From positions 10,023-50,022 of the forward strand of contig DURJ01000075.1 in assembly GCA_012837285.1 (NCBI GenBank): a stretch of 40,000 nucleotides of DNA, in the 5' to 3' direction. The stretch comes from Bacillota bacterium (GTDB lineage Bacteria > Bacillota > DTU030 > DUMP01). The notes under the pieces are model-generated. The model was not told the DNA's origin. It did no database searches and saw nothing but the letters and a program-made list of their open reading frames with translations. Position 1 is the first letter of the stretch. The number at the start of each line of letters is the position of its first letter. Both the position numbers and the translations under genes were made by a program. Positions 1,558-16,802 of this stretch are shown here, one piece after another.

Positions 1558-1612
1558 GGTCTCCCCTCCTTAGGTGGTGATCCAAAGTGTTTTAATTCGC
1601 CTTATAGACTTT

Positions 1613-2488: not shown

Positions 2489-2493
2489 CTGCT

Positions 2494-3366: not shown

Positions 3367-3371
3367 TACCT

Positions 3372-4331
3372 CTACACCTCCAATAACGACGCTCGCAGCA
3401 GGTCGGCATTAATGCTGCCGGCACGATGGACCCGGCCGGTGGATTGATTGTTTATAACAACCTCTGCTGGACTGAACAGTAACGGGTCCATATCATAAAA
3501 ATCACCATAGCGCTTAAACAGATCTAGAAAAAGGGTACCGTAATCGGAAGACGCTGAGGACGGTACCCGATCTACCACCGCTTGAATTCTATCGCTGACA
3601 TCGGCTACCGTGTAGAAACACCGTCCGCCGTACAGCACCGCATCATTGGTCCGTCCGAGGGCTGTCAGATCATCCTGGGCCACCGGTGCCAAGGGACAGG
3701 TGCCAAAAGCCGCTCTAACACAATTTATGTCGTAACCTAAGGTTAGAAGCTTGTGAAGTCCGGTCTCCACCACCCGTGCCGCCACCTGCACTGAACCTAC
3801 AATACTGGCTGTAGAAGCAGCTATCAGCCATAGATGTTGAGGCTGCAAGCCACACTCTGCGGCCAGTTTACGGGCAACTTGTTCCGGAGGCAAACTGTCT
3901 GATTCTAAGATCAACACACCTCGCCTAGCTTGTTCCCGGTAAGCTAAAACCTTGAACACCTCTTCTTTGGCCGCCAGTGCTCGGGCCGGTCCAGAACCCA
4001 AAGCAGAAAAGCCTTCCCCTTGTACCGACCACCCGGCGTACTGAGAAGCCAGGCAAGCGATTGAAGGCTCCTGAACCGTAACCTGAATCCCCGGTAGCCA
4101 AAAATCATCAAAGGAAAGCAGCACAAACTCCACGCGGCCCAAACCTCCCAGACTAGCCTCGGCCACTAGCCGCCCGGCCTCTAAACTTCCGGGAGAATTT
4201 ATTCCCGCATCTAGCACCTGACTTCTGCCGGAAAAAGTAATGTGCTCGATCCCTAAAGCTTGCTGGTTGTCCACCAGGTGTTCTACCAGGACTGCAGCCT
4301 GTTCATTTAAGCAGATTCTGCCCGCTGGCAT
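3372..4331 (-). CDS. mch: Methenyl-tetrahydromethanopterin cyclohydrolase
   Basis: 319 aa, the typical Mch length. The N-terminus (LNEQAAVLVEHLVDNQQALGIE) and overall sequence are colinear with archaeal and methylotroph Mch. It overlaps the fwdC end by 25 nt. Confidence 0.9.
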   Translation of the reverse strand: MPAGRICLNEQAAVLVEHLVDNQQALGIEHITFSGRSQVLDAGINSPGSLEAGRLVAEASLGGLGRVEFVLLSFDDFWLPGIQVTVQEPSIACLASQYAGWSVQGEGFSALGSGPARALAAKEEVFKVLAYREQARRGVLILESDSLPPEQVARKLAAECGLQPQHLWLIAASTASIVGSVQVAARVVETGLHKLLTLGYDINCVRAAFGTCPLAPVAQDDLTALGRTNDAVLYGGRCFYTVADVSDRIQAVVDRVPSSASSDYGTLFLDLFKRYGDFYDMDPLLFSPAEVVINNQSTGRVHRAGSINADLLRASLLEV

Positions 4332-5125
4332 ATCAAAATCTCTCCCTTGCCCAATTCATTGGTATCGCCCAGATAGCGAGCACAGCTTCCCTCCCGAGCA
4401 GCCTGGGGCACTGAAACCCCTTGGTTTTCCAGTGTTCGCCAAAGGATGGGCAGGAAGCTAGGACGATAAATACAGCAATAGACAAAGGTTGGCAACAGAT
4501 GGGTGGCTTCAGTTAATACAATGGTGCCTCTGTTCATATTAGCTCCCGGATGGGCACCGCTCTGTCCAAAAACAACTAATGTTCCCGCCCGCATCCCGAC
4601 GCCAAGAAAATCACCGCTGGCACCGCTTACCGCTATCAGTCCTCGTCTCATTCTGGCCCCTACCTCGTTACCCACATTCCCTTTTATGATGATTGTGCCG
4701 CCAGTCATGCCTGTCCTTTCTCCCCTATAGCCGGCACCTACTAAGTGTCCCGCTGATCCTTCAACTCTAATTAATCCCCCTCTCATTTCAGCGCCCAACC
4801 AGTCAGCCACTTCTCCCCTTGCTCTAATCACTCCCCCCAACATACCGGAACCTAAATGCATGCCTACTGGGCCGTCAATGGTGAGCAGGCCCCGGTCCAT
4901 GCCTCGGCCCAAATACTTGACTCGGCCCAAATCACCCTCCACATGTAGCTGCCCGGTACACTCTGTACCGTCAATGGAAAAGAACTCCCCCAAAGGAACC
5001 TGCTCATTACCATATTGTAAAGGAAGCGCTGCCACTTCTCGAACGGGCTTGCCGAGGAGATGTGCCGGAGAAATGCTTTCAGCCTCCAAAGGAACTTCTA
5101 GTTTAGTTTTCAGCTTCAGTCGCAA
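4307..5125 (-). CDS. fwdC: Formylmethanofuran dehydrogenase subunit C (FwdC/FhcC)
   Basis: 272 aa. Carries the repetitive G-x-x-G beta-helix region (GMHLGSGMLGGVIRARGEVADWLGAEMRGGLIRVEGSAGHLVGAGYRG...) characteristic of FwdC and the GltB C-terminal domain. Confidence 0.85.
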   Translation of the reverse strand: MRLKLKTKLEVPLEAESISPAHLLGKPVREVAALPLQYGNEQVPLGEFFSIDGTECTGQLHVEGDLGRVKYLGRGMDRGLLTIDGPVGMHLGSGMLGGVIRARGEVADWLGAEMRGGLIRVEGSAGHLVGAGYRGERTGMTGGTIIIKGNVGNEVGARMRRGLIAVSGASGDFLGVGMRAGTLVVFGQSGAHPGANMNRGTIVLTEATHLLPTFVYCCIYRPSFLPILWRTLENQGVSVPQAAREGSCARYLGDTNELGKGEILICQRAESA

Positions 5126-5137
5126 GTTGGGATCACC

Positions 5138-6016
5138 TCATTCCAGCACCGACCGAAGTTGGATTTTGTACTGGCCCAGTTTACCCCCGTAGTTTCCGGC
5201 TGTTATCTGTACAATTCCTGGTTCACAAGCTGCCCTTATTCCAACCCGGGTGGCTTCTTCCACGGCTGCTAAATCGAGCCCGTCAATAACAATTTCCAGC
5301 ACACTGTTCACCTTCGAAGGTAAAGCCGACTCCACTCGTCCTCGCAGGCTTGGACAGTAAGCTGTGTTGGTTGACGCTAGCAGGGATTTATAGCGTGAGC
5401 CCACTTTGCTTCCGCTTCGGACTATACCGCCGGGAAAGGGCATGATAACACCGGCTACCTTTTCCATGGCCTCTACTGCCTTTGTTGCCGCCGCCAAAGT
5501 CAGTTGGTCATCAGTTCCTAGCAGCAGAAAATTGCCTCCGCCCACACCTTTACAGTAGCCAAAGCTCTCTTGAATTAGAAACTCCCCTTCCATTACTGGA
5601 ATCCGCCAGTAGCGCTGTCCGGCAATAACCTTGCTGGCTTGCCACCCATCGCCAAAGTAGCGCAGTTTCCCTCCTACCTGAAGCTGCCCATCACTCGCCA
5701 AGCCGTTGTAGCAAGCAGTGGTGGGACAAGTCATCACGCATTGCCCCAGTCGGGCTAAGAGCTGCTTTTCCAGTTCTTGAAAAGAAGTAGCAAAAAGTAA
5801 GACTGCCACCCCCGGTCGATCATCAGGTGTCGCGGATACTTCGCCTTCAATTCCAGCTTCGCAACCGCAGCCGATAATAGAAGTGGCGAAGCCGGTTACG
5901 CTTTGAGCCGCCTGTAAAGCCCATTTACGGTTGGCAGCTGTAATAATAAACCGGGTTCCATAAAGGGCGAAAGCTTCGGCAAAGGTATCGTGGATGTAGA
6001 CACCCTTTATGTACAC
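5138..6016 (-). CDS. ftr: Formylmethanofuran:tetrahydromethanopterin N-formyltransferase (Ftr/FhcD)
   Basis: The ORF track extends to 6070. A GTG at 6016 preceded by GGGAGGTGA gives MYIKGVYIHDTFAEAF..., which matches the canonical Ftr N-terminus (..EDTFAEAF..). This start overlaps the fwdA stop by 10 nt. Confidence 0.9.
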   Translation of the reverse strand: MYIKGVYIHDTFAEAFALYGTRFIITAANRKWALQAAQSVTGFATSIIGCGCEAGIEGEVSATPDDRPGVAVLLFATSFQELEKQLLARLGQCVMTCPTTACYNGLASDGQLQVGGKLRYFGDGWQASKVIAGQRYWRIPVMEGEFLIQESFGYCKGVGGGNFLLLGTDDQLTLAAATKAVEAMEKVAGVIMPFPGGIVRSGSKVGSRYKSLLASTNTAYCPSLRGRVESALPSKVNSVLEIVIDGLDLAAVEEATRVGIRAACEPGIVQITAGNYGGKLGQYKIQLRSVLE

Positions 6017-7632
6017 GAAATCACCTCCCAGGGGAAATAACGCTGTTTTTCCACTGGGTAATTGGCCCACGAGACGCTATAGACCTGCTCAAATAGCGGT
6101 GCTAACCATGAATCTACCGCCTGTCGCTGACACAGTTCCGGTAACAGAGTTTTGCCAACGCAGCTTCGTATCACCTCTCCCTTGTTAACTACCACTTGCC
6201 CTTCTTTGATTACATATTCCGGGTAAGCAAACATTTCTTGGTAATTGGCTTGGGGCCGGTAAATGGCAATATCGGCCTGAGCACCGATACCAAGATGGCC
6301 TTTGTGTCTGAGACCCAAAGCCCGTGCCGGTCCGGCCCTGGTGGTTATAGCTATCTCCGCCAACGTATACTCCCGGGACAAGTCTGAAACATTGGTCCTT
6401 TGCTGTGCTCTTTTGTTCAGCTTCGCTGCCACCTCTTCCCGGTAACTCCGATCCATTAGGAGTCTGATGATCCAAGGATAGGCGGTGAAAGGACCGGCGT
6501 TAGGATGATCAGTAGTCAAGTACACCTGCCAAGGGTTGTCAATAAGTAGAAAAAGTTCCAAACCAATGAGCCACTGCATCGCCCCGGCATAGCTCTGTTC
6601 ATGGTAAACCAAAGGCACTACCCCGGAACCGGTCTCTCCTTCGATGTCATTGTTCACCCATCGTTCGCCAGTAAGTTGATGCAGTTGGTATTGCAAGGGT
6701 CCGTCAGCGGTCATGGTGACGGCTGGGCCAAAGATCACTTGACCTACATCCACAGTCAAATTAGGATGGCTGTTGACAACAGCAGCCAGTGCTTCCGCCC
6801 CGGAAGCAAACGGCAAACCGTTAGCTTTCCGGTAACCACTAAACTGAAGATGGGTTATGTGTAACCGACGTCCAGCGGCCAGGGCCATAGTAGCCAACGC
6901 CACCTCATCGCTACCAGCCTGACCGAGACCATTGCAGTGCAGGTGAACGGCATGGGGTAGTCTTAGTTCCTCATTGATGTCCAGTAACGTGTCGATAATC
7001 TGTCTGGGAGTAACACCGTAACCGTACACTTCATCATCCAGATGTCGGACATTGCTCCCCCGTTTCCAGTTGGCAACACCACCGGGGTTTACTACTTTGA
7101 TCCCATAACCACCGGTGGCCTCAAGCAGCCAGGTTATGTAGTCCAGTAGTCGCTCTTTCTCTCGCTGACGAATCAAATTTAAAATGAAGTGGTTGTTACC
7201 CATCAAAACCAAAGCGCCCTTATCAACTATAGGTGTGTCCGCCAGTTCTTCATGAACATGGCGCGCCTTCAGTGGTGGCATCGCTGCCTCCACCACAGTA
7301 GTATAGCCCAGCTTGGCATAACGATAGCCAGTGACAAAAGTAGAGGGAACCGTAGCGCCGACACCGCTTCTGGTGCTATGGGTACGACGCACTGGATCTC
7401 GACGGTGATCTTCTGGGCACAAGATCCGCCCGGTATTAACTTTCGGACCGGCGATGTGGGTATGAATGTCGATCCCGCCTGGCATAGCTATTAACCCAGC
7501 GGCAGGAATGACAGTGTCAACGGTGCCCTGCTCCCCGGAAACAATTCTACCATTCTGCACAAAGATGCTCTTCGCCTGTCCGTGGATCCCATTGCGGGGA
7601 TCATAGACACAGGCACCTTCGATCATGAGCAT
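6007..7632 (-). CDS. fwdA: Formylmethanofuran dehydrogenase subunit A (amidohydrolase; FwdA/FhcA)
   Basis: 541 aa. Amidohydrolase metal motif GGIDIHTHIAGPKVN. Length and colinearity fit FwdA. Confidence 0.9.
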   Translation of the reverse strand: MLMIEGACVYDPRNGIHGQAKSIFVQNGRIVSGEQGTVDTVIPAAGLIAMPGGIDIHTHIAGPKVNTGRILCPEDHRRDPVRRTHSTRSGVGATVPSTFVTGYRYAKLGYTTVVEAAMPPLKARHVHEELADTPIVDKGALVLMGNNHFILNLIRQREKERLLDYITWLLEATGGYGIKVVNPGGVANWKRGSNVRHLDDEVYGYGVTPRQIIDTLLDINEELRLPHAVHLHCNGLGQAGSDEVALATMALAAGRRLHITHLQFSGYRKANGLPFASGAEALAAVVNSHPNLTVDVGQVIFGPAVTMTADGPLQYQLHQLTGERWVNNDIEGETGSGVVPLVYHEQSYAGAMQWLIGLELFLLIDNPWQVYLTTDHPNAGPFTAYPWIIRLLMDRSYREEVAAKLNKRAQQRTNVSDLSREYTLAEIAITTRAGPARALGLRHKGHLGIGAQADIAIYRPQANYQEMFAYPEYVIKEGQVVVNKGEVIRSCVGKTLLPELCQRQAVDSWLAPLFEQVYSVSWANYPVEKQRYFPWEVISCT

Positions 7633-8894
7633 TTGCTCACCCCCTGCACTAATTCGCTGATAATTTCTTCATCGCTGGGCCATGGATATTCAATCAGCTT
7701 TTTCACCGACAGGGGGACTAGATCCATACGGTAGACAGTGCCGGCGGCTCCTATTCCAGCCGGGGCCGAAGGAAAGTACACCTGAGCTACCTGAGCTGTA
7801 GGCGAATAATAGGGGTCCACAACCACTGTAGGGATTTCCTTTAAGCAGGCCGCAGCCCGGGCAGGTAATGTAACCACTGGATCGGCAGCCACAATCAGAG
7901 CCGCATCCACTTCCCGCCGCCGTAATAGATCGGTAGCAGTAAACTCCCCCGGATTATAGCGCGGGTAACCGCGGCTAAAATTGACTGCAAAAGGATATCC
8001 TGTTTGCCAGGCCAAAACACTTTCGCTGCCGGCCACATTACCGTGACCTCGCATCGGCATGGCAGCAAACTTGGTGTGCCGATTTAAGTCACGAACTAAG
8101 TCTATGGCCTGGCCTACATTATAAGGCCCACCTCTGGTCATAGTCAGACCCATCCCAAAGAAAAGCACACCATAACTGGCGGCCCGCAAAATCTCACCTA
8201 CTTCCACAAGCTGTTCCCATGGTATTCCTCCGTAAGTTGCTCGGGGGAGTTCATGGCCCTTAACCAAGGCCCGCAGTACTGTCAGCACCTCAAAATCGCC
8301 ACCTGGTTCCACCTGCAGAAACAGGTCGGCTCCTTTGGCCGTTGCTGTCTTCCGTACGTCCACCACGATCACTTGTCTGTCTTTTCTCCCTCGGGCCACC
8401 TCTAGGCCTCTGGCTGCTACAGAGTAGCGGCTAAAATGACGCGGATGAGCTTCCATCGGATTACAGCCCCAAAAAACCACCACATCAGCTCGGTTTTTAA
8501 CCTCACCCAAAGAGCAAGTGGGGATACCAACCAGCTGTTGAGCCAATGTACCGGGACCATGGCAGATTGATGACGTTGAATCGATGCTGGCCCCGATTAT
8601 TTCTGCCAAATACACCGCTTTCTTTTGAGCCTCACACGTAGTGCTGGAAAGTCCGTAAATCAATGGATGGCGAGCAGTAGCCAGAATCCTGGCCCCCGCA
8701 GCCAGTGCCGCCTTGAAGCTTGATTCCTGTCCGGCCACTCGGGGGCTTACGCCTGCAGGGGAAGCTATGAATTTAGCCCGACCTAACATACATCCTCGCA
8801 GTACAGCTGTCACTTTGTTTTCCTCCACTGTAACTTGGAGATCGTCACACAGGGACCCGCAGCCAGGACAAACAACATTCTTATGAACAACCAC
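7623..8894 (-). CDS. fwdB: Formylmethanofuran dehydrogenase subunit B (molybdo/tungstopterin subunit)
   Basis: The ORF track starts at 8963 (ATG). A GTG at 8894 with GGAGGG 6 nt upstream gives VVVHKNVVCPGCGSLCDD..., matching the FwdB N-terminus (NVVCPxCGxLCDD). Also present are DSTSSICHGPG (position of the Mo/W-ligating Cys/Sec) and GEVKNRADVVVFWGCNPMEAHPRH. Confidence 0.85.
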   Translation of the reverse strand: MVVHKNVVCPGCGSLCDDLQVTVEENKVTAVLRGCMLGRAKFIASPAGVSPRVAGQESSFKAALAAGARILATARHPLIYGLSSTTCEAQKKAVYLAEIIGASIDSTSSICHGPGTLAQQLVGIPTCSLGEVKNRADVVVFWGCNPMEAHPRHFSRYSVAARGLEVARGRKDRQVIVVDVRKTATAKGADLFLQVEPGGDFEVLTVLRALVKGHELPRATYGGIPWEQLVEVGEILRAASYGVLFFGMGLTMTRGGPYNVGQAIDLVRDLNRHTKFAAMPMRGHGNVAGSESVLAWQTGYPFAVNFSRGYPRYNPGEFTATDLLRRREVDAALIVAADPVVTLPARAAACLKEIPTVVVDPYYSPTAQVAQVYFPSAPAGIGAAGTVYRMDLVPLSVKKLIEYPWPSDEEIISELVQGVSKCS

Positions 8895-9228
8895 TGGAGT
8901 CCCTCCCCACCCAGGCCTGGAGTCCTTTGTAGCCAGGCATCCCACTCCCGTTTGTTCGTGCATCGGTCAGGCGGTTAGCTTCTGGACCGTAGGGAACAAA
9001 GGCCAGATTATGAGGCAGATCAGCTAGGCGACAGCTAAATATTCCTTCTCCAAACGCGGTGCCCACCCGGACCAAATCTCCTGCCTGCAGCCCCAATTGC
9101 TCTAGAACGGCAGCGCCTAGTTCAACCACGGCAGTTTCCTTTCGGTATAGCCCTGACTCCTTACCTTGCATCAAGCCTCGGCCCTGGTTGATGGTTCTGC
9201 CGGTAATTAGAATTACCTCAACCTTCAC
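8881..9228 (-). CDS. fwdD: Formylmethanofuran dehydrogenase subunit D (molybdopterin-dinucleotide-binding beta-barrel)
   Basis: 115 aa. ILITGRTINQGRGLMQGK...LQAGDLVRV...PYGPEANRL is typical of FwdD/FmdD. Lies directly upstream of, and overlapping, fwdB. Confidence 0.8.
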   Translation of the reverse strand: MKVEVILITGRTINQGRGLMQGKESGLYRKETAVVELGAAVLEQLGLQAGDLVRVGTAFGEGIFSCRLADLPHNLAFVPYGPEANRLTDARTNGSGMPGYKGLQAWVGRDSSGCS

Positions 9229-10408
9229 CGGGGCCGCCCCCTTTCCTATTGCTGGGAATCACTTGGGCTAATACCCAGTATTGCTGTTCACGAAGGGCCT
9301 CCATACATTCCTCCCGCGTATCTCCCCGGGCTAGAACGGTGCAAATCGGAGAGTGGGCCGATATTTTTTCACCCGGATGAGGAATGTCACGGATCCCGGC
9401 TCGGAACCAGCCACCGGTATCGCCGCAGCTTAAATCCCATGGGGCGTAGACGACAGCTTTCCCCCAATAGCCCTGCCGCTGGCATATGGCAGGCAAAACG
9501 GCCTGTTCTACCCCAAAGCCCTGACAGGCCTTGACATGCAACGAAAACAAGTCGTAGCCATAAGCAGCAGCAAAAAGCTCCATAGATGCCGAGTAGCGGG
9601 GATTCACCTCCAGAAACATCGGTTCGTCGTCAGCAGTGAGAAGAAAATCAATACCATTTAATCCCTTCAAACCAAATTCCACGGTGACGAGGTTAATCAG
9701 CTTCTTTAACCAAGTCCACAAGCCAATCGGGAACTCACTCCATCGATCCAGCCATAACGGTACGATGTTGCCTGAATAAATAAATTCTGATGCTCCAAAA
9801 TCCCGGCTTCCACATAATTGTTCACTTATGCCTAAAACGTAAGCTTTCTGACCATTGGCAACAAAGGAGACGGAGGCCGGCATACTGGCCCGATACTCCT
9901 GCAGCAGGTAGTCTTCGGACAGATGCACCTCCTCCGCCGCCCAGTTAATGTTGGTTCCACCGCCGGACTTTCTGGGTTTTAACAGCCACCGTCCCGAAGG
10001 CACCGGCCCCTGCCATTGATACAACGTCCGCGGGTAAGCGAACCTGTTAGTCTCCAAGAACCGGTGAAGTTGTTCCCAATCTCTGACCCGCCGTAGGGTA
10101 GAGCTGTCGTTACCCAACAGCTCTCGGCCGGTTGTCAATTCAGCCACCAAATCAGGCTCATCATCCAGGCCTGAAGTATAGGCCAAAGTATCATAACTCA
10201 ACTTGGTGGCGGACGTGGCCAAGGCTTGGGCTGAAAAAGATGCCTGTCCAAAATCCCGCCACAGTGAATAACTCTGCCCCCATTGGTTTTGATCATAGTC
10301 ACCAAAGTAATCCAAGGTTAGGAGCTCATAGCTGCTGCCTTCCTTGCTCTTGGCAACAGCTTCAGCCAAACCCCGAGTGCTAAAACCCAGCACCAACAAC
10401 TTCTGCAA
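9218..10408 (-). CDS. ATP-grasp enzyme associated with H4MPT/methanofuran pathways (orf5/orf17- or MfnD-like)
   Basis: 396 aa. ATP-grasp core: WLLKPRKSGGGTNI, LLQEY, GLNGIDFLL...MFLEVNPRYSASMELF. Overlaps the fwdD start by 11 nt. Confidence 0.65.
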   Translation of the reverse strand: MQKLLVLGFSTRGLAEAVAKSKEGSSYELLTLDYFGDYDQNQWGQSYSLWRDFGQASFSAQALATSATKLSYDTLAYTSGLDDEPDLVAELTTGRELLGNDSSTLRRVRDWEQLHRFLETNRFAYPRTLYQWQGPVPSGRWLLKPRKSGGGTNINWAAEEVHLSEDYLLQEYRASMPASVSFVANGQKAYVLGISEQLCGSRDFGASEFIYSGNIVPLWLDRWSEFPIGLWTWLKKLINLVTVEFGLKGLNGIDFLLTADDEPMFLEVNPRYSASMELFAAAYGYDLFSLHVKACQGFGVEQAVLPAICQRQGYWGKAVVYAPWDLSCGDTGGWFRAGIRDIPHPGEKISAHSPICTVLARGDTREECMEALREQQYWVLAQVIPSNRKGGGPGEG

Positions 10409-10420
10409 GACCGTTTCCTC

Positions 10421-11281
10421 CTAGCTGTCCTGGCCTAAACTATATACTTCTTGAGCATCCAGGAACACATCGTTTCTAGTAAACAGATGGTCCACAGCAG
10501 TCTTGTGAATCTTCATCTTGAGTCCGCCGATGCCCAGGGCGCCAAAACATATTTTCCCCTGACGCCTCTTCCCATCATCGCTCAGTTTCAGGCCAGTAAC
10601 ACCGCCAGGGGGCACAGCATTAAGGTCTGCTACAACTCTCAAGGCCGCGGCTCCAGCCCAGGTTTCCTCGGTCAAAAGAACTGCGCCTAAGGCACCGGTA
10701 GTGACCACAATGGCCTTATCGGCTAAGGCTGCACCTGCAGCCTGTTGATCATTAGGATTAAGCTTCAACGGTTCTACGACCACCTTATATTGTTCCGCTA
10801 AAGTCTGACAGGCCGCTTCGGCCCGAGCCATGGATCGGGAAGTCAAAGTTACCTGGCCGCCGCCCAAAGACAACAAGGCTGCCACTCTGAGTCCTACCGG
10901 TCCCGTTCCCGCCATTACCAAAGCCTTCTGCCCAGCTACGGGATAAGCACGATTAATTTTGATAACCGCTGCTGCCGCTGTAGTGTTACAGCCATTAGCA
11001 TCCATTAACACCGACACTCGAACCGAACCGAAAAAAGTCTTTTGCACAGTCGTTAACACTTCCTGGGCAGTTGCCACTTGTGAACCGCCGATGAATATGG
11101 CCGTATTTTTTAGATCTTGGTTGCTGCGGGTAAACATTGCTCCGTAGACAAAATCGCGTACATTCTCTGCCGTCACCCCACCGTAGGCCAAGACATGGTC
11201 GACTCCGGCATCGTAGGCCACAACAGTGTCAAAAACACTGGGCATGGAGTCTGTATCCAGTTGAATGAGTAGTTTCTTCAC
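10421..11281 (-). CDS. mtdA: NAD(P)-dependent methylene-tetrahydromethanopterin dehydrogenase (MtdA/MtdB family)
   Basis: 286 aa with a GTG start and GGGGAGGTG Shine-Dalgarno sequence. KKLLIQLDTDSMPSVFDTVVAYDAGVDH...TAIFIGG...FFGSVRVSVLMDANGCNTTAAAAV...GTGPVG...FGALGIGGLKMKIH is colinear with Methylobacterium MtdA as I recall it. I cannot separate MtdA from MtdB by eye. Confidence 0.9.
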   Translation of the reverse strand: MKKLLIQLDTDSMPSVFDTVVAYDAGVDHVLAYGGVTAENVRDFVYGAMFTRSNQDLKNTAIFIGGSQVATAQEVLTTVQKTFFGSVRVSVLMDANGCNTTAAAAVIKINRAYPVAGQKALVMAGTGPVGLRVAALLSLGGGQVTLTSRSMARAEAACQTLAEQYKVVVEPLKLNPNDQQAAGAALADKAIVVTTGALGAVLLTEETWAGAAALRVVADLNAVPPGGVTGLKLSDDGKRRQGKICFGALGIGGLKMKIHKTAVDHLFTRNDVFLDAQEVYSLGQDS

Positions 11282-11351
11282 CCTGCCACCTCCCCTGCAC
11301 TGAGCCTAATTGCAGATGCAGCAGTACGAAAAAAGTAAACTGCAGGAGGTT

Positions 11352-11367
11352 AGCAGTGGTGGTGCCT
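11352..11367 (-). promoter_or_regulatory. Candidate (imperfect) sigma-54 -24/-12 element upstream of mtdA
   Basis: The minus strand reads AGGCACCACCACTGCT. GG and GC have the correct spacing, but there are two core mismatches to TGGCAC-N5-TTGCW. It lies about 70 nt upstream of the mtdA GTG. Confidence 0.3.
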
Positions 11368-11488
11368 GTTTCCTTCTGTCTTACCACCCGCTTCACCTCC
11401 CACAGCCTACAGACAAGTTAGACCCCCCTACATATCCTTATTGCTGCTTAAAATACTGAGGTCTCATCACTGTCCTAACATCCGCTGT

Positions 11489-12976
11489 CTATACAGTATC
11501 ATGCCAGCTACAGTGGCTATGGCGTTTAGTCAAGATGCAGACAGCACAGTCCTTGCAAACTCGGGCTGGAGAACCGGGGACTTCAGGGTTCAGGGCAATA
11601 ATATTGGTCATCAAAGTGGCGGTTACCGGCTCGCTGGTCAGGAGACAAGGGAAGTCGGCCAGCCGCATAAGAGCGGAGAATCGTACCGTAATACCACAGG
11701 CCGGATAGGTGTAACGCTGAGGATTAGCCAGCACCTCATTCTTCTCGATGGGATCTAAATCAACTTTGACACCTCTCACCTTGCCGCCATTGCCAATAGG
11801 TTCATCTTCCAGAATATTGCTCCCCCGGTGGATCATATCCATAAAGTCTACATTGTGGAGTTCAGCAGCAGCCCCACGGTTCGGATATAGTTGGACATAG
11901 TTGTAGAAACGTTTCGTTAACAGATCGATCACCATCGGCGCAGTGAATCCATCTTTCTCCAAGATGTAAGCTGCCCCACAGGCAGTGGAACCGGTAGCTA
12001 CACTCAAAACATCATAGGCGCTGTCGTAGCCCTGTTCCAGCCCTCTCTGGAGAGTGTTGGCCAAAACATCGGTCTCAGCTTCCATAATGGCCATAATTAC
12101 ATCGTCCTTGGCCATATTGAACATCGATTGGGCAATATGGTGAGCCACATCGCCTACACAGTAAGCTGGAACAGTAACAATGTTACCATAATGAACCCCT
12201 GCTTCTACTGCCTTAAGAATGAGGGGCTTCATCCGCTCTTTGTATTTGAGCATATACTCCTTAACATCAAAGGACTGATGACCACCATCGGTCATAAGCT
12301 TCGTCTGAGCTGCGATCGGCTCCCGATAGACCATTTGCAGCATCTCAATCTCGTCCCGAACAGCTTGGGCAGTGGTCTTGCCCGCCTCAATGGAATCGGC
12401 AAAGGCGGCCCCGATCCCATAAGAGGTGTTCATTCCCCACGACTTGGCCGACAAAATAGCCTTTTTATGAGCCGTTGGAATATCTACGCCTTTGAGAATC
12501 TCGTTTACCACTGAAGTGGTGGAACCAGGACAGAAGGCAAAGTCCACCACGCAAGTGGGTCCATAGAACCCGCCATAACGTCTGACCGCCTCTCGTCCAA
12601 CTAAGGCCTCGTTCGTTGCAATGGCGTCGATAAACTTGCTCATAGACTCTTTGAAACCAGTGTCTTCCTCAACCAGAATTTCGAGAATAGGGGGAGTCTG
12701 GTAGTGCTCGACAAAAGGATCGTCTTCAGGTCGGACGTACTCAGTCAATCCTTTGAGGATTTCGTAATGGGCATTGACAGACTGAACATGGAGGTCAATG
12801 ACCTCAGGGGACTGCCCCTCCCCAACGGTCATACCGTTGACGGCATCCACATAGGGCTGGGCGTCACCAATGGTAAAGGTCTGACCCCGCTTTTCCTTAA
12901 TTACCCCGATATCTGCCCGCTGAGCCGATAAGGCTTCTTTAATCATCTTTTCATGGATGGTACTAGACACGGACAA
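11489..12976 (-). CDS. Uncharacterised 495-aa Cys-rich protein with no family recognised; candidate metalloenzyme linked to the C1 module
   Basis: Long clean ORF with GTG start 12976 and AAAGGGGA 7 nt upstream. Recurrent Cys contexts: GPTCVVDFAFCPGS, PAYCVGDVAHH, GSTACGAAY, YPACG. C-terminal CKDCAVC-x8-C cluster. No hydrophobic signal or TM segment is evident. Confidence 0.8.
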   Translation of the reverse strand: MSVSSTIHEKMIKEALSAQRADIGVIKEKRGQTFTIGDAQPYVDAVNGMTVGEGQSPEVIDLHVQSVNAHYEILKGLTEYVRPEDDPFVEHYQTPPILEILVEEDTGFKESMSKFIDAIATNEALVGREAVRRYGGFYGPTCVVDFAFCPGSTTSVVNEILKGVDIPTAHKKAILSAKSWGMNTSYGIGAAFADSIEAGKTTAQAVRDEIEMLQMVYREPIAAQTKLMTDGGHQSFDVKEYMLKYKERMKPLILKAVEAGVHYGNIVTVPAYCVGDVAHHIAQSMFNMAKDDVIMAIMEAETDVLANTLQRGLEQGYDSAYDVLSVATGSTACGAAYILEKDGFTAPMVIDLLTKRFYNYVQLYPNRGAAAELHNVDFMDMIHRGSNILEDEPIGNGGKVRGVKVDLDPIEKNEVLANPQRYTYPACGITVRFSALMRLADFPCLLTSEPVTATLMTNIIALNPEVPGSPARVCKDCAVCILTKRHSHCSWHDTV

Positions 12977-13086
12977 TTCCCCTTTCTTTTTTCTTTTTTG
13001 CCCAAACCATACTTACCAGTAAACAGTGTGCCGAAACTTCAACCTCACCTCCCCTGTTTTTGGCACAATTCTTACTTGTTTCTATT

Positions 13087-13102
13087 TGCAATAATTGTGC
13101 CA
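13087..13102 (-). promoter_or_regulatory. Sigma-54 (RpoN) -24/-12 promoter for the 495-aa gene
   Basis: The minus strand reads TGGCACAATTATTGCA, an exact match to TGGCAC-N5-TTGCA. It lies about 110 nt upstream of GTG 12976 and next to the sigma-54 activator gene. Confidence 0.75.
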
Positions 13103-13286
13103 GGCTTGGCAATATTGTGCCTACCCTACGGTCAGTGAGGCTTGTGGCTATTTCTGCAGCGGAAAATACTGTTCAGGATGGTGTTTCACAATGATACGGT
13201 TCTGGTATACAGTTTGGTTATTTATGGTTTTAGAGTAGAGAGGGAGAATGGTGGACAAGATTTGTTTCATTCCGGCACATGATCCA

Positions 13287-15242
13287 CTATGATGCATCTT
13301 CCCGAAAAGTTTTCAGTTCAATCGCATAGCGCTTTAGTTTCCGATACAAAGTGGTACGACCGATTCCCAGAAAGGCTGCCACTTTGCTTACATTTCCTTG
13401 ATAAACCTCCAGTGCCTGCACAATGGCCATTCGTTCCACCTCGGCTAAGCTGTGACCTTTTTCGGCCATGGCTGGCCTCATGGTATGCGACCGGGGCACA
13501 CAAATCCGCGCCGGAAAATGTTCCAGCTGTAAAGTTCCGTCCTCTGCCAGGTGTAATGCCTGTTCAATGGCATTTTGTAGTTCCCGAACATTGCCGGGCC
13601 AGTGATACTCTAATAGAACTTGTTTAATAGACGGGTTCATAACCACCTGCTCATAACCTAATTGCCCGGAAACACGTCGCAGAAAATAGCGCGCCAGCAA
13701 GAGGACATCATCGCCTCGCTCCCGCAACGGCGGAATAAACAGATTAACCACGCTGAGACGATGAAACAGATCTAAACGAAAGTGTCCTTCATTGACTAGC
13801 TTAGCAATGTCCTTGTTGGTGGCGGCAATAAATCTAACTTGAATTGGAACTGGCGTATGCCCTCCGATCCGAATCACTTGCTTTTCTTCCAGCACTCGAA
13901 GCAAACTGGCCTGCGTCTCCAGCGGGATGTCGCCAATTTCGTCCAGAAACAAAGTACCGCCGCTGGCTAATTCAAACTTTCCCGGTCGCCCCCCTCGTTT
14001 TGCCCCGGTAAAGGCGCCCTCTTCATAGCCAAACAGCTCGCTTTCCACTAAGTCGCGCGGCAAAGCGGCACAATTGATCGCTACAAAAGGCCCGTCCCGT
14101 CGAGGACTGGCATTGTGGATTGCTTGAGCAAATAGATCCTTCCCAGTACCGCTTTCTCCCATGATCAACAAGGTGGAATCTGTGCGGGCTACCCGTTTGG
14201 CGATACCGATACTCTCAGTGAACTTTGGATCTTCTCCAATTAAGTCCTCAAATTCGAACCGAGCCTGGGCGCCGGCCATGCGCGTCACCAATCGTTGTAC
14301 CGACTTCATCTCTCGGCAAGTCAGCACCACCCCGATAACTCCGCCCCGTTTGGAACAAACAGGCTGACTGGAAACAGTGAGGCGTAACCGCCGGCCCTGA
14401 AAATCTACCGCCAACTCCCGGTCATTAAAACCTTCTCGACCAGTCTTAATCATCCGTAATAATGGAAAAGAGTTGCAGAAAACTTCTTCCACGGGCTTCC
14501 CCAAACATTCCACCGGATCGAGACCGAAAATTCTCCCAGCTACAGTATTCATTTGGCTAACGATGCCCTTATTATCGATAAAGATAAGGCCCTCAGAAAT
14601 CGATTGTAACACCGACACCAGCCGATCCCAGGTCTGTTCCAATTTCAGCTCCATTTGCACCGCTGCCGTCAGTGCTATCAACATAGCAAGAGTATGAAAA
14701 CAAAGCGTTCTCTGGTAACCGGCCATGCCGAGGACTCCTATTAATTCACCCTCCGGGTCAAACAACGGAGCAGCGGCGCACGACAACCCTTGCATCATAT
14801 TAAGATAGTGTTCGGTCCCAGTAACCAGGCTCGGGCTTTTCTCTGCGATAGCCAGGCTGATTGCATTAGTTCCCAACTCTTCTTCTCGCCACTGAGTTCC
14901 CACCCTGAGGGCAGTCTCTGGGGGAGACAATCGGTTCAGGTCTCCGGTAGCGGCGACAATGCATCCCTCTGGATCACAGAAGAATGCCGCTCCATCTAAA
15001 TCACAAAACCCACTGATCTTCTCCAGGAAGGGTCGGCTAACGCGCACCACTGAAGCGGATGCCTCCAGTCGTTCCTTCAGCTCTCGTCCCTGTAACTGAG
15101 TCCACCTAACTTCTTGAAAGGGATCCAGCCCCCGCCGTCGGCACCTTTCCCAAGAAGCCATGATCTCAGGGCGGATTCCCTCCACCGGTATTCCCTGCCC
15201 AACAAAACGTTCCCAACAACTTTTTATCTGATTCTGAACCAT
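13287..15242 (-). CDS. Sigma-54-dependent transcriptional activator (AcoR-like N-terminus/GAF, PAS, AAA+, Fis-type HTH)
   Basis: 651 aa. AcoR-type start (SCWERFV...[19 protein letters not shown]). AAA+ motifs GESGTGKD, the GAFTGA loop ([12 protein letters not shown]) and ELFGYE. C-terminal [25 protein letters not shown]. Confidence 0.9.
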
Positions 15243-15244
15243 GG

Positions 15245-16231
15245 TTAATCATCCTTTTCCCCGGTCACCGAAGCTCCCTGGTTTCGTGGCGACAAACAAC
15301 GCACCTTAGCCGGTACCTCAATCTGCTTCAGGTACGTTTTCAACTCCTGTTGAATTTCCTCCCCCAAAGCCCGACACTCAACCACTCCGTACAAGGTCGG
15401 TCCCCAGGAACTTTGCCCGGCGCCGGTGGCTCCGGCATTGAGGAGCAGACGCACAATCCCTTCAGCTGCAGGATGGCTGTACAATCCCCCTTGGATCGGA
15501 GCAAACTGTTTGCCAATGGTCCACTGAATCTCTGTCAGAGCCTGCCCAAAAGCTTCAATGTCTCTTTCCAGTAAGGCCGGCAGGAGCTGCATAACTAACA
15601 GGCGACAAACAAGCCCCACATCTTCCGGCGGTATTGGCGGCATGGCCCGAAACGCTTGCCATTCCCGGTGCCCACTGTAACCCGCTGTGCTGGCCGGAGT
15701 TACTACTAGAAAACACCAATCTGAAGGAAAGTCGTGTCTAAAAATGAGCGGGGGTACGTATCCTTTCAGGTCTGCCCGGTCAAATTCTCGCGGAATTCCT
15801 CCGTCCACTACAAAACCCCCGCTCTGGAAAATGCCAATCCCCACCCCTGATTGGTGTCCCCGACCGCTGATCCGAGCTAATTCCGCCACCGAATAATCCT
15901 GATCGTAGAGGTGAAACAAAGCCGCGCCCACAGCCAGGGCTAATTGGGTACCCGACCCCAACCCCACATGTGATGGGATCGCCTCTTGCACCACCAGGCG
16001 GGCCCCTCCTTGAACCCCCATTTCAGCCAGGAACGTCCTAGCTAAAGACAGGACCCTTTCCTTTTCCCAGCCGTTCACACTCAAGTTTGAAGCTATTTCG
16101 GCCTGAATTACGGTTTTTGGTCCTTCTAAAGCTACCCCCAGCCCACCATAAAGCCGTCCCAGGGAACCGTTCAGGTCTATTTGTCCTAAATGCAGTCGGC
16201 AGGGCGTCTCAACTTTAAGCATTGGTACCAT
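15245..16231 (-). CDS. mptG: Beta-ribofuranosylaminobenzene 5'-phosphate (beta-RFAP) synthase, GHMP-kinase fold (H4MPT biosynthesis)
   Basis: 328 aa. TPCRLHLGQIDLNGSLGRLYGGLGVAL and the GHMP motif PSHVGLGSGTQLALAV are typical of beta-RFAP synthase. Confidence 0.85.
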   Translation of the reverse strand: MVPMLKVETPCRLHLGQIDLNGSLGRLYGGLGVALEGPKTVIQAEIASNLSVNGWEKERVLSLARTFLAEMGVQGGARLVVQEAIPSHVGLGSGTQLALAVGAALFHLYDQDYSVAELARISGRGHQSGVGIGIFQSGGFVVDGGIPREFDRADLKGYVPPLIFRHDFPSDWCFLVVTPASTAGYSGHREWQAFRAMPPIPPEDVGLVCRLLVMQLLPALLERDIEAFGQALTEIQWTIGKQFAPIQGGLYSHPAAEGIVRLLLNAGATGAGQSSWGPTLYGVVECRALGEEIQQELKTYLKQIEVPAKVRCLSPRNQGASVTGEKDD

Positions 16232-16802
16232 CCACCTTTCCTCGAAACTGCCGTAAGTACCGAAGAAGAAAGCTCAAGGCTTCTCTTTCCCGTGGTCCAC
16301 CGGTTTTAGTAATAATAGCAGCCAGCCGATCTAGTTCTTGGTTAAGAAAAGAGTGTTTATACAAAAAAGGGCGAGAAGCTAGGATTGCTCCCTCCACCAA
16401 AGCCGCTTGGGCGCGATTGAATCCACTGACAACTCCACTTTCTCCCTCCTGTACAACCCGACAAGTGAACAGGGCTCGTTCTTCCCGATCCTCCATCCTT
16501 TCCACTTCAATTTCCCACCAGCTACAATCTACCAGCACAGTTCCCGGCACTCGTTCCGCCGGAACGCCCGGCAGAACCGGATCACCTACAGCCGTGTAGA
16601 CGAAAAGCGACCCATCGTAACTTAAATTTACTACTCCGACGCCGGTCGAGAGCAGGTTCTGATAGGTATGAGTTGTTTTATACGGCCGCACTTGCAGAGC
16701 CTGCTCCGTCGGCAACAAAGTAATACCCATGGGGGCAGGATTCATCTGTCCCTGCGGGCTAACCGTGGTAACAATGGACTCAATGATCATGGCCTGATTC
16801 AC
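16215..16802 (-). CDS. DUF447-family protein (FMN-binding split-barrel-like; H4MPT-linked 'orf19'-type)
   Basis: 195 aa. N-terminus IIESIVTTVSPQGQMNPAPMGI plus the C-terminal helical part fit DUF447. Overlaps the mptG start. Confidence 0.7.
   Translation of the reverse strand: MNQAMIIESIVTTVSPQGQMNPAPMGITLLPTEQALQVRPYKTTHTYQNLLSTGVGVVNLSYDGSLFVYTAVGDPVLPGVPAERVPGTVLVDCSWWEIEVERMEDREERALFTCRVVQEGESGVVSGFNRAQAALVEGAILASRPFLYKHSFLNQELDRLAAIITKTGGPREREALSFLLRYLRQFRGKVDGTNA

Follow-up and report, generated by a model that had tools for sequence, protein, structure and literature searches.

The open reading frame at positions 11489-12976 of the window (the whole 40,000-nucleotide stretch of Bacillota DNA that was analysed) encodes a canonical member of the DUF2193 family (PF09959), which by its sequence is a soluble, all-α protein of about 55 kDa with a predicted [4Fe-4S]-binding tail. 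Its gene heads a cluster for H4MPT- and methanofuran-dependent C1 chemistry that, judged from promoter spacing and a cognate GAFTGA activator, is a sigma-54-dependent operon. The sequence-only reading had called the product unclassifiable, a protein that it could assign to no family; instead, the Pfam DUF2193 profile matches it end to end (residues 6-495 against profile positions 2-498 of 498, E=3.6e-250, 831 bits, with a gathering score of 25). Tentatively, and with somewhat less than even confidence, DUF2193 is proposed to act in connection with H4MPT as an enzyme that takes up carbon at the formaldehyde level and passes it to MtdA.

The DUF2193 gene and its product

The gene and the elements that define its product are as follows.

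12979-12985, minus strand: ribosome-binding site AAAGGGG, 8 nt upstream of the GTG, read from the sequence
11489-12970, minus strand: DUF2193 coding sequence, stop codon at 11491-11489, alternative TTG at 12976
11510-11557, minus strand: cluster-binding motif C472-x2-C475-x8-H484-x2-C487, plus the non-conserved C478, assigned from conservation and the M. voltae homologue

An uninterrupted minus-strand frame fills 11489-12976, and the plus-strand frame is riddled with stops. The frame described earlier is thus real, but its length of 495 residues is not the likely one. The GTG at 12970 is the likely start, giving 493 residues, since the ribosome-binding site lies 8 nt from it and only 2 nt from the TTG. 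The 493-residue product is 100% identical to a database protein (P0001). It has no NCBIfam match and no PDB match by sequence or by profile. The family is small and isolated: in 1.84 billion proteins it makes up 151 clusters at 50% identity. It is present in at least 576 of 185,579 species genomes; no aerobic methylotroph stands among the named homologues listed. Members from Bacillota and methanogens share 63-75% identity over their whole length, and eight polar residues distant from the Fe-S tail (R28, H68, Q91, D103, Y184, E207, Y239 and N263) are conserved across all subfamilies. This combination of identity and placement is constraint of the kind typical of an enzyme.

All the motifs quoted in the sequence-only reading (GPTCVVDFAFCPGS, PAYCVGDVAHH, GSTACGAAY, YPACG, FPCLL and C472-x2-C475-x2-C478-x8-C487) are present in the translation. 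Its description of the protein as Cys-rich suits the tail and not the whole, which has 10 Cys in 493 residues. Seven of these (C140, C271, C425, C442, C472, C475 and C487) are kept across the canonical subfamily, and C147, C331 and C478 are non-conserved. C472, C475 and C487 are constant and position 484 is His or Cys in the canonical, AOR-linked and MtrH-linked subfamilies, and the window tail has the family pattern CX2CX6-9(H/C)X2C. Two divergent members (P0139 and P0157) retain the body and have no Cys tail.

The Methanococcus voltae homologue MvoDUF2193 (Mvol_0354), the one family member studied so far and published in 2025, carries one [4Fe-4S] cluster per subunit, bound by the tail Cys (PMC12375889). 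This published spectroscopy backs the earlier guess of a metal or Fe-S protein. The apo form is a tetramer and the holo form a monomer, a switch that depends on the cluster; the protein is soluble, has redox-active disulfides, co-purifies with E. coli nucleic-acid-binding proteins and is induced 13-fold on pyrite (FeS2) (PMC12375889). Both it and the window protein match PF09959 over their full length, with a C-terminal CX2C...(H/C)X2C motif and a predicted all-α body, whereas the window gene is bacterial, heads a sigma-54 H4MPT/MFR operon and is without AqpM and DUF2180. H4MPT, formaldehyde and bacterial contexts go unmentioned in the M. voltae paper; its authors proposed a carrier, sensor or regulator role in Fe-S trafficking and regulation instead (PMC12375889). 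The DUF2193 gene is non-essential in M. maripaludis.

The AF2 model of the window protein is confident (pLDDT 94.7, pTM 0.93) and consists of 25 helices with almost no strand. Foldseek matched it to nothing in the PDB, the best E being 0.055 with a TM below 0.2. The top matches are transporters, but a membrane protein was rejected on those TM values below 0.2, a maximal 19-residue hydropathy of 1.27 and the solubility of the M. voltae protein; no transmembrane segment was found. MtaB, MtbB, MtmB, MttB and the other families that the sequence-only reading had set aside show no similarity to it by Pfam, NCBIfam, PDB sequence or profile search, or Foldseek (TM <0.2), and the same searches gave no match to any characterised enzyme. 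Neither Pfam nor Foldseek revealed a signature or fold for binding flavin, nicotinamide, pterin or corrinoid. FNR- or IscR-type features are likewise absent: Pfam shows neither an HTH nor any other domain that binds DNA, and Foldseek gives no structural match.

A sigma-54 operon for H4MPT-linked C1 chemistry

The surrounding genes share the orientation of DUF2193 and are listed here from upstream to downstream.

16215-16802, minus strand: DUF447 gene of H4MPT biosynthesis (Pfam DUF447_N and DUF447_C)
15245-16231, minus strand: beta-RFAP synthase gene, upstream of the activator (NCBIfam TIGR00144, 219 bits, cut-off 113.5)
13287-15242, minus strand: sigma-54 activator gene, directly upstream of DUF2193 and in the same orientation, MimR_N/GAF-PAS-AAA+-HTH_8
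13087-13102, minus strand: sigma-54 promoter TGGCACaattaTTGCA, TGGCAC-N5-TTGC at 13088-13102, between activator and DUF2193, with the -24 GG at 13101-13100 and the -12 GC at 13089-13088
10421-11281, minus strand: MtdA-type methylene-H4MPT dehydrogenase, the next gene downstream of DUF2193 (Pfam Mpt_N, 4.7e-32)
592-10408, minus strand: rest of the co-oriented cluster, with ATP-grasp (MfnD-like), fwdD, fwdB, fwdA, ftr, fwdC and mch (Pfam, NCBIfam), and RimK-type ligase, CitG-like and GTP cyclohydrolase MptA/FolE2 genes

The promoter, which the sequence-only reading had called exact, is the sole exact match in the 40 kb window. Nearly all the Bacillota relatives have an equivalent of the form TGGCA-N7-TTGC, 58-148 nt upstream of their DUF2193 gene; archaeal loci have none. 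Another sequence resembling a sigma-54 site, GGCACcaccaCTGC, precedes mtdA at 11353-11366 and was rejected: it is absent in L013, L014 and Halanaerobium and so is probably a chance match. The activator directly upstream is of true sigma-54 type, with Sigma54_activat (2.3e-67), GAF, PAS and HTH_8 domains in Pfam, MimR_N among precomputed matches, and the AAA+ motifs GESGTGK at 362 and GAFTGA at 409. Its linkage to DUF2193 recurs in Bacillota (17 of the 36 bacterial loci) and stops there.

Gene order bears out the earlier placement of the frame immediately upstream of mtdA-fwd-ftr-mch, by both Pfam and NCBIfam, and the 11282-11488 interval between DUF2193 and mtdA holds no terminator-like site. 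The downstream assignments are strong (FwdB TIGR03129 539 bits, FwdA TIGR03121 708, Ftr TIGR03119 425, MCH 391), and GCHY-1 was found as well. The placement of beta-RFAP synthase and DUF447 is repeated in L001, L013 and L014. By tblastn, the window has neither an AqpM nor a DUF2180 gene, and the absence of the formaldehyde-activating enzyme Fae noted earlier was confirmed in the same way.

Gene neighbourhoods across the family

The link to H4MPT and methanofuran genes is conserved. DUF2193 lies inside such a cluster in 31 of 31 informative bacterial loci (those with enough flanking DNA, among 36), which come from four phyla and include Moorella, Sporomusa, Desulfitobacterium, Desulfosporosinus, Formimonas, Halanaerobium, Thermoleophilia and Anaerolineae. 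It is often directly 5' of mtdA, an adjacency seen in Bacillota, Halanaerobium and Anaerolineae. Bacterial DUF2193 is interleaved with genes for beta-RFAP synthase, a DmrB-like flavoprotein, a DHPS-like protein, DUF447, MptN-like and MfnD-like ligases and MptA; the bacterial clusters examined contain no Mer or F420 genes. Such anaerobes, the acetogens in particular, would have the folate C1 pathway too. The import of more than 15 H4MPT genes along with DUF2193 therefore suggests that the DUF2193 reaction needs H4MPT. Clusters with the same enzyme set, fwdD retained, are described in Firmicutes, Chloroflexi and Actinomycetes in passages of the Chistoserdova 2016 survey (PMC5020050), and those passages make no mention of DUF2193, AqpM or sigma-54 control.

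Interleaving with cofactor genes would also suit a part for DUF2193 in making, salvaging or repairing H4MPT or methanofuran, yet this is improbable given its limited distribution, the lack of aerobic methylotrophs among the named homologues listed, its dispensability in M. maripaludis and an archaeal partner that is AqpM and not a biosynthesis gene.

Archaeal loci pair DUF2193 with a MIP channel gene (AqpM) in 43 of 44 cases and with the small, Cys-rich DUF2180, which resembles a metal-binding mini-protein, in 40 of 44; the corresponding bacterial counts are 18/36 and 8/36. The neighbours of these canonical archaeal genes are thus AqpM and DUF2180 rather than C1 genes, and an HTH_10 regulator lies next door. 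Of the adjacent MIPs, the two compared with 2EVU/3NE2 proved to be AqpM orthologues (374 and 309 bits). The AqpM channel is a tetramer with a narrow, more hydrophobic filter and poor glycerol conductance, and no physiological role for it has been identified (PMC6912568); a role with H2S was considered and dismissed. The pairing with a channel gene points to a small uncharged substrate. GlpF-GlpK, and PduF in the propanediol operon, likewise couple a MIP channel gene to the first cytoplasmic enzyme, which traps the solute by converting it. The likeness is one of analogy only: the channel here is AqpM, the enzyme is unrelated to GlpK, and a pterin would take the place of ATP.

The subfamilies split cleanly by gene context. 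Archaeal paralogues at 36-48% identity lie in operons of the order mtrEDCBAFGH-mer-AFOR-DUF2193, in which the stop codon of one gene overlaps or adjoins the start codon of the next and Mer exceeds its NCBIfam cut-off. Others form MtrH-DUF2193 pairs that overlap by 4-8 nt and are translationally coupled, with small ferredoxin or Fe-S genes adjoining. Linkage also holds for the divergent archaeal paralogues, which are tied to Mtr, Mer, MtrH and a tungsten aldehyde oxidoreductase. In Ca. Ethanoperedens the paralogue FHEFKHOI_00598, annotated 'hypothetical protein', shares with the window protein the DUF2193 domain (36-42% identity), the tail motif and H4MPT enzyme neighbours; it differs in following the tungsten aldehyde:ferredoxin oxidoreductase in an mtr-mer operon without AqpM. 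It probably acts on a different unit, perhaps C2, from canonical DUF2193. This AOR-linked paralogue reaches an RPKM of about 6800-8000 and so exceeds both mer and aor in expression. The AOR itself has been proposed to act on an intermediate at the level of a C2 aldehyde, the source of which is not known (PMC7175092). The small ORFs that follow the paralogue of the Ethanoperedens type matched no family. A literature search on DUF2180, on formaldehyde or methanediol with aquaporins, and on H4MPT in Desulfitobacterium, Moorella and Halanaerobium returned nothing useful.

A candidate role in C1 capture and its alternatives

The sequence-only reading proposed a candidate entry enzyme for the H4MPT pathway. 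That candidacy is partly supported, with no characterised enzyme matched and the cluster linkage conserved; the entry role itself, like the substrate, reaction, direction and function of the cluster set out here, is what we infer from these contexts. The GAF-PAS activator from the preceding gene would turn on the promoter at 13087-13102, giving one transcript for DUF2193, mtdA, fwdDBAC, ftr, mch and the H4MPT and methanofuran biosynthesis genes. The substrate would be a small neutral C1 compound, namely free formaldehyde, its hydrate or its adducts, which in most relatives may enter through the neighbouring AqpM-type channel. Catalysis by R28, H68, Q91, D103, Y184, E207, Y239 and N263 would hand the carbon to MtdA as methylene-H4MPT, and Mch, Ftr and Fwd would then oxidise it to CO2. 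The Fe-S tail may be structural, regulatory or a docking point for ferredoxin. The paralogues supply an independent tie of the family to an aldehyde and to C1 units carried on H4MPT, which supports capture. Against it, the one biochemical study of the family led to a proposed carrier, sensor or regulator role (PMC12375889), the canonical archaeal genes lie away from C1 genes, the window is without AqpM and DUF2180, formaldehyde leaves the 13-fold pyrite induction of the M. voltae homologue unexplained, and no H4MPT-binding site was identified in DUF2193.

The comparison with Fae (PF08714; 1Y5Y) sharpens the question. DUF2193 is proposed to do what Fae does, turning formaldehyde into methylene-H4MPT on which Mtd, Mch, Ftr and Fwd/Fhc can act, and both sit at the head of H4MPT clusters or within them, but the two have no kinship in sequence or fold: the window protein gives no Pfam Fae match and no Foldseek match to PDB chains, 1Y5Y included. 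Fae is absent from 90 of the 91 DUF2193 loci examined, a point in favour of capture. The exception is an Anaerolineales locus (L077), where Fae directly follows mtdA in the same operon as DUF2193, and strict replacement of Fae was rejected on this account. Fae homologues are also named, among the matches listed, in Methanoperedens and Methanothrix, genera that carry DUF2193; the list obtained with the L077 query holds at least 8000 matches, mostly unnamed or archaeal at the top, and is uninformative on Bacillota. This occasional co-occurrence indicates that DUF2193 is no simple Fae replacement, and the two are probably not strictly isofunctional. Formaldehyde and H4MPT condense spontaneously, and Fae has 170 residues and no cofactor. 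A 55-kDa Fe-S protein looks over-built for capture beside such chemistry and so simple an enzyme.

The position of Fae in L077 fits a step upstream of Fae. Release of an aldehyde also suits the mtr-mer operons, in which the paralogue stands directly behind the tungsten AOR; in Ca. Ethanoperedens, where that AOR is proposed to use a C2 aldehyde-level intermediate (PMC7175092), the paralogue is more highly expressed than aor and mer. DUF2193 could on these grounds be a lyase, perhaps for some other substrate, that frees an aldehyde from a cofactor-bound or small precursor, to be consumed by Fae or spontaneous chemistry in bacteria and by AOR in archaea. The precursor might be methylene-H4MPT, alkylidene-H4MPT, a thio-adduct or some further neutral C1 compound that comes in through AqpM, but none can be singled out. 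A sigma-54 catabolic activator and a place ahead of MtdA suit both directions equally, and, the tail cluster aside, no cofactor is evident that could serve redox chemistry or the cleavage of C-S or C-N bonds. This makes lyase activity unlikely, if the most serious alternative to capture.

An Fe-S-dependent sensor, regulator or cluster carrier, in which cluster occupancy switches the oligomeric state and controls partners or expression, draws on the cluster, tetramer/monomer switch, disulfides, FeS2 induction and nucleic-acid-binding co-purification of MvoDUF2193 (PMC12375889). It might even gate AqpM, which is likewise tetrameric. However, Pfam finds no DNA-binding or regulatory domain, and a dedicated regulator is already next door, an EBP in bacteria or HTH_10 in archaea. 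The identity extends over all 490 residues with invariant polar positions far from the tail, paralogues are translationally coupled to AOR and MtrH and expressed at the level of catabolic enzymes, half of the bacterial loci (the window included) are missing AqpM, and P0139 and P0157 keep the body without the Cys tail. Such a role is rather doubtful.

Quite unlikely, too, is an oxidoreductase that is linked to ferredoxin, with the tail [4Fe-4S] as electron relay, and works on a C1 unit either free or bound to H4MPT; it would catalyse, for example, an F420-independent methyl/methylene step or oxidise some reduced, neutral C1 compound as far as the level of formaldehyde. The conserved tail with three Cys and a His or Cys ligand, the ferredoxin or Fe-S genes beside MtrH-DUF2193 pairs, the Cys-rich DUF2180 partner and the absence of Mer and F420 genes from the bacterial clusters examined are all consistent with it. 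Yet the fold and signature searches revealed no flavin, nicotinamide, pterin or corrinoid site, the bacterial clusters lack an enzyme that uses methyl-H4MPT, and a lone cluster at the periphery does not make a catalytic site.

Of the two major pathways that handle C1 units, one is the H4MPT/methanofuran route, and in strictly anaerobic Bacillota, Chloroflexota and Actinomycetota it is known from genome surveys only, with neither a substrate nor an entry step assigned. The AqpM structure dates from 2005, and the mtr-mer-aor operon is highly expressed in ethane-oxidising archaea whose ethyl-to-acetyl chemistry is unsolved. A single hypothesis, aldehyde-level carbon on H4MPT, would join DUF2193, the bacterial sigma-54 clusters, AqpM and this operon. 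Its boldest form is a long shot: DUF2193 as a new enzyme class with a fold unmatched in the PDB, an Fe-S aldehyde-pterin ligase/lyase whose canonical members trap AqpM-delivered formaldehyde and whose AOR-linked paralogue releases acetaldehyde, which would be freed from ethyl- or ethylidene-pterin made by Mtr and Mer. AqpM would then gain its long-missing physiological role, the import of the whole pathway by anaerobic bacteria would be explained, and the missing ethyl-to-acetyl steps of archaeal ethane oxidation would be supplied. If capture is wrong, DUF2193 remains a conserved Fe-S protein with a blank annotation in more than 570 species; if it is right, the family would provide a new enzyme of C1 biochemistry and a handle on formaldehyde metabolism in anoxic habitats.

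DUF2193 gene, promoter and operon

The gene that the sequence-only reading called unclassifiable belongs to the Pfam family DUF2193 (PF09959), which it matches end to end (E=3.6e-250). A single long ORF fills window positions 11489-12976 on the minus strand, and the plus strand there is full of stops. The proposed 495-aa protein starts at a TTG at 12976, but a GTG at 12970, giving 493 aa, is the more likely start: P0001, a database protein 100% identical to the window protein, has 493 aa, and the ribosome-binding site lies 8 nt from the GTG and only 2 nt from the TTG. Every Cys/His context quoted for the protein is present, including C472-x2-C475-x2-C478-x8-C487, and so is its own exact sigma-54 promoter, between the activator gene and the ORF. 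The elements upstream of the ORF are as follows.

13287-15242, minus strand: sigma-54 enhancer-binding activator gene with GAF, PAS, Sigma54_activat, AAA_lid and HTH_8 domains (Pfam)
13087-13102, minus strand: sigma-54 promoter TGGCACaattaTTGCA
12985-12979, minus strand: ribosome-binding site AAAGGGG (sequence reading)

The pattern TGGCAC-N5-TTGC has one exact match in the 40 kb, at this promoter. The activator is a genuine enhancer-binding protein, as first read, by its domains, Walker A motif GESGTGK and GAFTGA loop; precomputed Pfam matches add a MimR_N domain. By class it is an AcoR/MimR/DhaR-like GAF-PAS activator; members of this class respond to small carbonyl compounds, which would fit, without proving, a carbonyl inducer.

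Domain assignments also bear out the position of DUF2193 immediately 5' of an mtdA-fwd-ftr-mch cluster. The co-oriented genes downstream encode an MtdA-type dehydrogenase, an ATP-grasp protein, FwdD, FwdB, FwdA, Ftr, FwdC, Mch, a RimK-type ligase, a CitG-like protein and the GTP cyclohydrolase MptA, and no terminator-like site was found in the 207-bp gap between DUF2193 and mtdA. A second sigma-54-like site in this gap, GGCACcaccaCTGC (11353-11366, minus strand; GG-N10-GC spacing), recurs in the near-identical contigs L001 and L002 and is probably due to chance, since it is absent from loci L013 and L014 and from Halanaerobium. Retention of fwdD (Molydop_binding) alongside fwdB (7623-9228, minus strand) suggests, from gene content and PMC5020050, that the complex would be a genuine molybdo-/tungstopterin formyl-MFR dehydrogenase rather than the hydrolase-type Fhc of aerobic methylotrophs. 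The window encodes no formaldehyde-activating enzyme (Fae), as had been noted; its remaining genes are housekeeping genes of a Bacillota-like bacterium, and its GC content is 51%.

Compared with loci L003, L005 and L007, the window cluster (592-16802) is without the DmrB-like flavoprotein, DHPS-like (DUF6513/pterin-binding) and AqpM genes, none of which was found anywhere in the window. In Moorella, Sporomusa and Desulfitobacterium, all three genes separate DUF2193 from mtdA. The beta-RFAP synthase and DUF447 genes have moved 5' of the activator relative to the same three loci. Either the genome carries the missing biosynthesis genes at another locus, or its cofactor pathway is incomplete.

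Family distribution and conserved neighbors

DUF2193 is an isolated family. A word-indexed search returned 977 homologues, the best 120 of which are full length and 63-85% identical to the window protein; these include Moorella, Sporomusa, Desulfitobacterium, Desulfosporosinus, Ca. Formimonas and Halanaerobium along with archaeal names (Methanoperedens, ANME-2, Methanobacterium). Of 1.84 billion cluster representatives scanned exhaustively with HMMER, only 151 matched, essentially one large cluster plus a dozen divergent full-length lineages at 27-49% identity, and no remote relatives. NCBIfam has no model for the protein, and neither sequence nor profile comparison found a similar chain in the PDB. 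An AlphaFold2 model from a 35-sequence alignment is almost purely helical (pLDDT 94.7, pTM 0.93), and no transmembrane segment was found. The polar residues kept in all lineages (R28, H68, Q91, D103, Y184, E207, Y239 and N263) lie outside the Cys tail, which some very divergent members lack while retaining the body. The tail motif C-x2-C-x8-9-(H/C)-x2-C is common to all three subfamilies (canonical, AOR-linked and MtrH-linked). Judging by PMC9431491, the tail may be a portable Fe-S module common to unrelated proteins.

At least 576 species carry the gene in a scan of one genome per species. For the best 80 loci, neighbors were classified by tblastn, with window proteins and reference neighbors as queries. 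H4MPT/MFR genes accompany DUF2193 in 31 of 36 bacterial loci, and in each of the other five the sequence downstream runs for less than 1.7 kb, so that every informative bacterial locus (31/31) shows the linkage on which the sequence-only hypothesis depended. These loci come from Bacillota, Halanaerobium, Thermoleophilia/Actinomycetota and Anaerolineae. Cultured Bacillota among them include Neomoorella, Desulfosporosinus lacus and Ca. Formimonas warabiya; further members, identified through exact-protein look-ups, are Moorella sp. Hama-1, Sporomusa sphaeroides and Desulfitobacterium hafniense. The typical Bacillota order is activator, sigma-54 promoter, DUF2193, AqpM in some loci, then H4MPT biosynthesis and C1 genes. 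The sequence TGGCA-N7-TTGC stands 58-148 nt 5' of DUF2193 in nearly all Bacillota loci and in none of the archaeal loci. Halanaerobium-type loci (L033, L035, L038, L049) place the activator 5.5-6.2 kb upstream, with biosynthesis genes in between, and keep a degenerate -24/-12-like site, TGG[AT]A-N7-ATGCA, 167-258 nt 5' of DUF2193.

Archaeal loci have an adjacent MIP-family gene in 43 of 44 cases, a DUF2180 gene in 40 of 44, and H4MPT genes nearby in only two of 44. The MIP gene, which adjoins DUF2193 at L003:11586-12332, L011:11815-12579 and 59 further loci, encodes an AqpM orthologue in both Methanobacterium and Moorella (374 and 309 bits, full length, against the AqpM structures 2EVU and 3NE2); a MIP or porin gene has been reported beside 91% of methanogen homologues (PMC12375889, PMC9431491). 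DUF2180, a 67-69-aa protein with the pattern CxxC...CxxCx4CxxH...CxxC, is highly conserved between methanogens and Thermoleophilia. Its gene (for example L011:11605-11814, L059:9640-9843 and L025:1598-1801) lies between DUF2193 and AqpM in those 40 archaeal loci and 5' of DUF2193 in Thermoleophilia, whereas Bacillota loci and the window lack it.

AOR-linked and MtrH-linked paralogues

Two further subfamilies, which split cleanly by identity, emerged when the divergent lineages were used for a profile search and the contexts of the matches were looked up. The AOR-linked subfamily is 51-69% identical internally and 36-42% identical to canonical members; the MtrH-linked one is 59-85% identical internally. 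Their loci are listed below.

L096:171-9584, L092:531-9512 and L094:4444-8735: AOR-linked DUF2193 loci
L093:7172-9461, L095:7186-9449 and L097:2686-4979: MtrH-DUF2193 pairs

The order in L092 and L096 is mtrEDCBAFGH, mer, tungsten aldehyde:ferredoxin oxidoreductase (AOR) and DUF2193, with stop and start codons adjacent or overlapping and Mer above NCBIfam cut-offs; in the L094 variant, DUF2193 lies within a corrinoid methyltransferase, MtrH and RACo cluster. Gene lengths in L096 correspond to FHEFKHOI_00601 to 00597 of Ca. Ethanoperedens thermophilum, with 927, 1860, 1584 and 276 nt equal to mtrH, aor_1, FHEFKHOI_00598 ('hypothetical protein') and the next ORF (PMC7175092 supplement). In the genome-wide expression table of supplementary file 3 of that paper, the count and RPKM columns are one row off the annotations; a shift is needed to reconcile counts with RPKM and gene length (scale factor about 828). 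After the shift, the 1584-nt DUF2193 paralogue reaches an RPKM of about 6,830-8,050, above aor_1 (about 4,290-5,280) and mer (about 3,190-3,810), and the 3,805 quoted for aor in the text belongs to mer.

In Geoglobus ahangari, Archaeoglobus sulfaticallidus and one uncultured archaeon, DUF2193 is translationally coupled to an MtrH-family H4MPT methyltransferase gene, the two reading frames overlapping by 4-8 nt at the start of DUF2193, with small ferredoxin or Fe-S genes close by. A. sulfaticallidus also carries a canonical DUF2193-DUF2180-AqpM trio 4 kb from its MtrH pair, both within 6 kb.

Candidate function

Four independent contexts set DUF2193 beside H4MPT-handling proteins: bacterial H4MPT clusters, Mer/Mtr operons, MtrH pairs and restriction to archaeal groups that presumably all use H4MPT. 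AqpM and AOR as neighbors suggest a partner that is small and neutral or at the aldehyde level, and the window protein is the first operon product, ahead of an enzyme that uses methylene-H4MPT. The simplest reaction to fit all of this would convert, in one direction or the other, between a free C1 unit at the aldehyde level and methylene-H4MPT. In bacteria, DUF2193 would capture formaldehyde, as hydrate or adducts, onto H4MPT for oxidation to CO2; by analogy only, AqpM and DUF2193 resemble GlpF and GlpK, a channel paired with the first cytoplasmic enzyme. That DUF2193 is an H4MPT-linked C1 or aldehyde enzyme is moderately probable, while formaldehyde-level capture specifically is possible rather than probable. 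The earlier proposal of a C1 entry enzyme or pathway accessory survives its own refutation tests, though unproven: no PDB or HMM match links the protein to a characterized enzyme, and the H4MPT/MFR linkage is conserved.

The remaining probability is divided among four alternatives: release of an aldehyde or action on a different substrate, redox chemistry linked to ferredoxin, a role as sensor or carrier, and cofactor maintenance. A regulator or carrier is suggested by the sole biochemical study, on Mvol_0354 of M. voltae, which binds one [4Fe-4S] per subunit via its C-terminal Cys motif, converts between apo tetramer and holo monomer, and reaches 13-fold higher abundance on pyrite; the study proposes an Fe-S carrier, sensor or regulator (PMC12375889, PMC9431491). 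H4MPT, formaldehyde and bacterial contexts are unmentioned in PMC12375889, and formaldehyde capture leaves the pyrite induction unaccounted for. Several observations sit poorly, however, with a purely regulatory role: the protein has no DNA-binding domain, bacteria and archaea alike encode a dedicated regulator beside it, the whole 490-aa sequence is conserved, paralogues are coupled to enzymes, and expression is at catabolic-enzyme level.

Co-occurrence makes a simple substitute for Fae unlikely. Fae homologues are named in Methanoperedens and Methanothrix, and in the Anaerolineales cluster L077, which also begins with DUF2193, a full-length Fae (6282-6782; 60% identity to the M. extorquens enzyme) is encoded after mtdA and before the ATP-grasp gene, the only one found among 91 loci. 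Condensation of formaldehyde with H4MPT is spontaneous, and Fae needs no cofactor. DUF2193 may instead act upstream, making the aldehyde, on another chemical form of formaldehyde, or in reverse.

The window gene adds a bacterial member to a family that is catalogued but has no assigned function, and it heads a pathway of a known kind, H4MPT/MFR C1 oxidation. The literature search found no report of DUF2193's invariant embedding in bacterial H4MPT clusters, its sigma-54 control, AqpM as its channel partner together with DUF2180 (itself not mentioned), or the paralogues linked to AOR/Mer/Mtr and to MtrH, among them the highly expressed ethane-oxidizer copy. AqpM, although its structures are solved, has no identified physiological role (PMC6912568), and the near-universal presence of its gene next to DUF2193 offers a lead. 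In Ca. Ethanoperedens, AOR was proposed to convert ethyl to acetyl, with aor genes in or near operons of methanogenesis genes, and the DUF2193 gene beside aor was not discussed (PMC7175092); the gene-length match places an unannotated, highly expressed DUF2193 gene beside the very AOR put forward for these steps of ethane oxidation.
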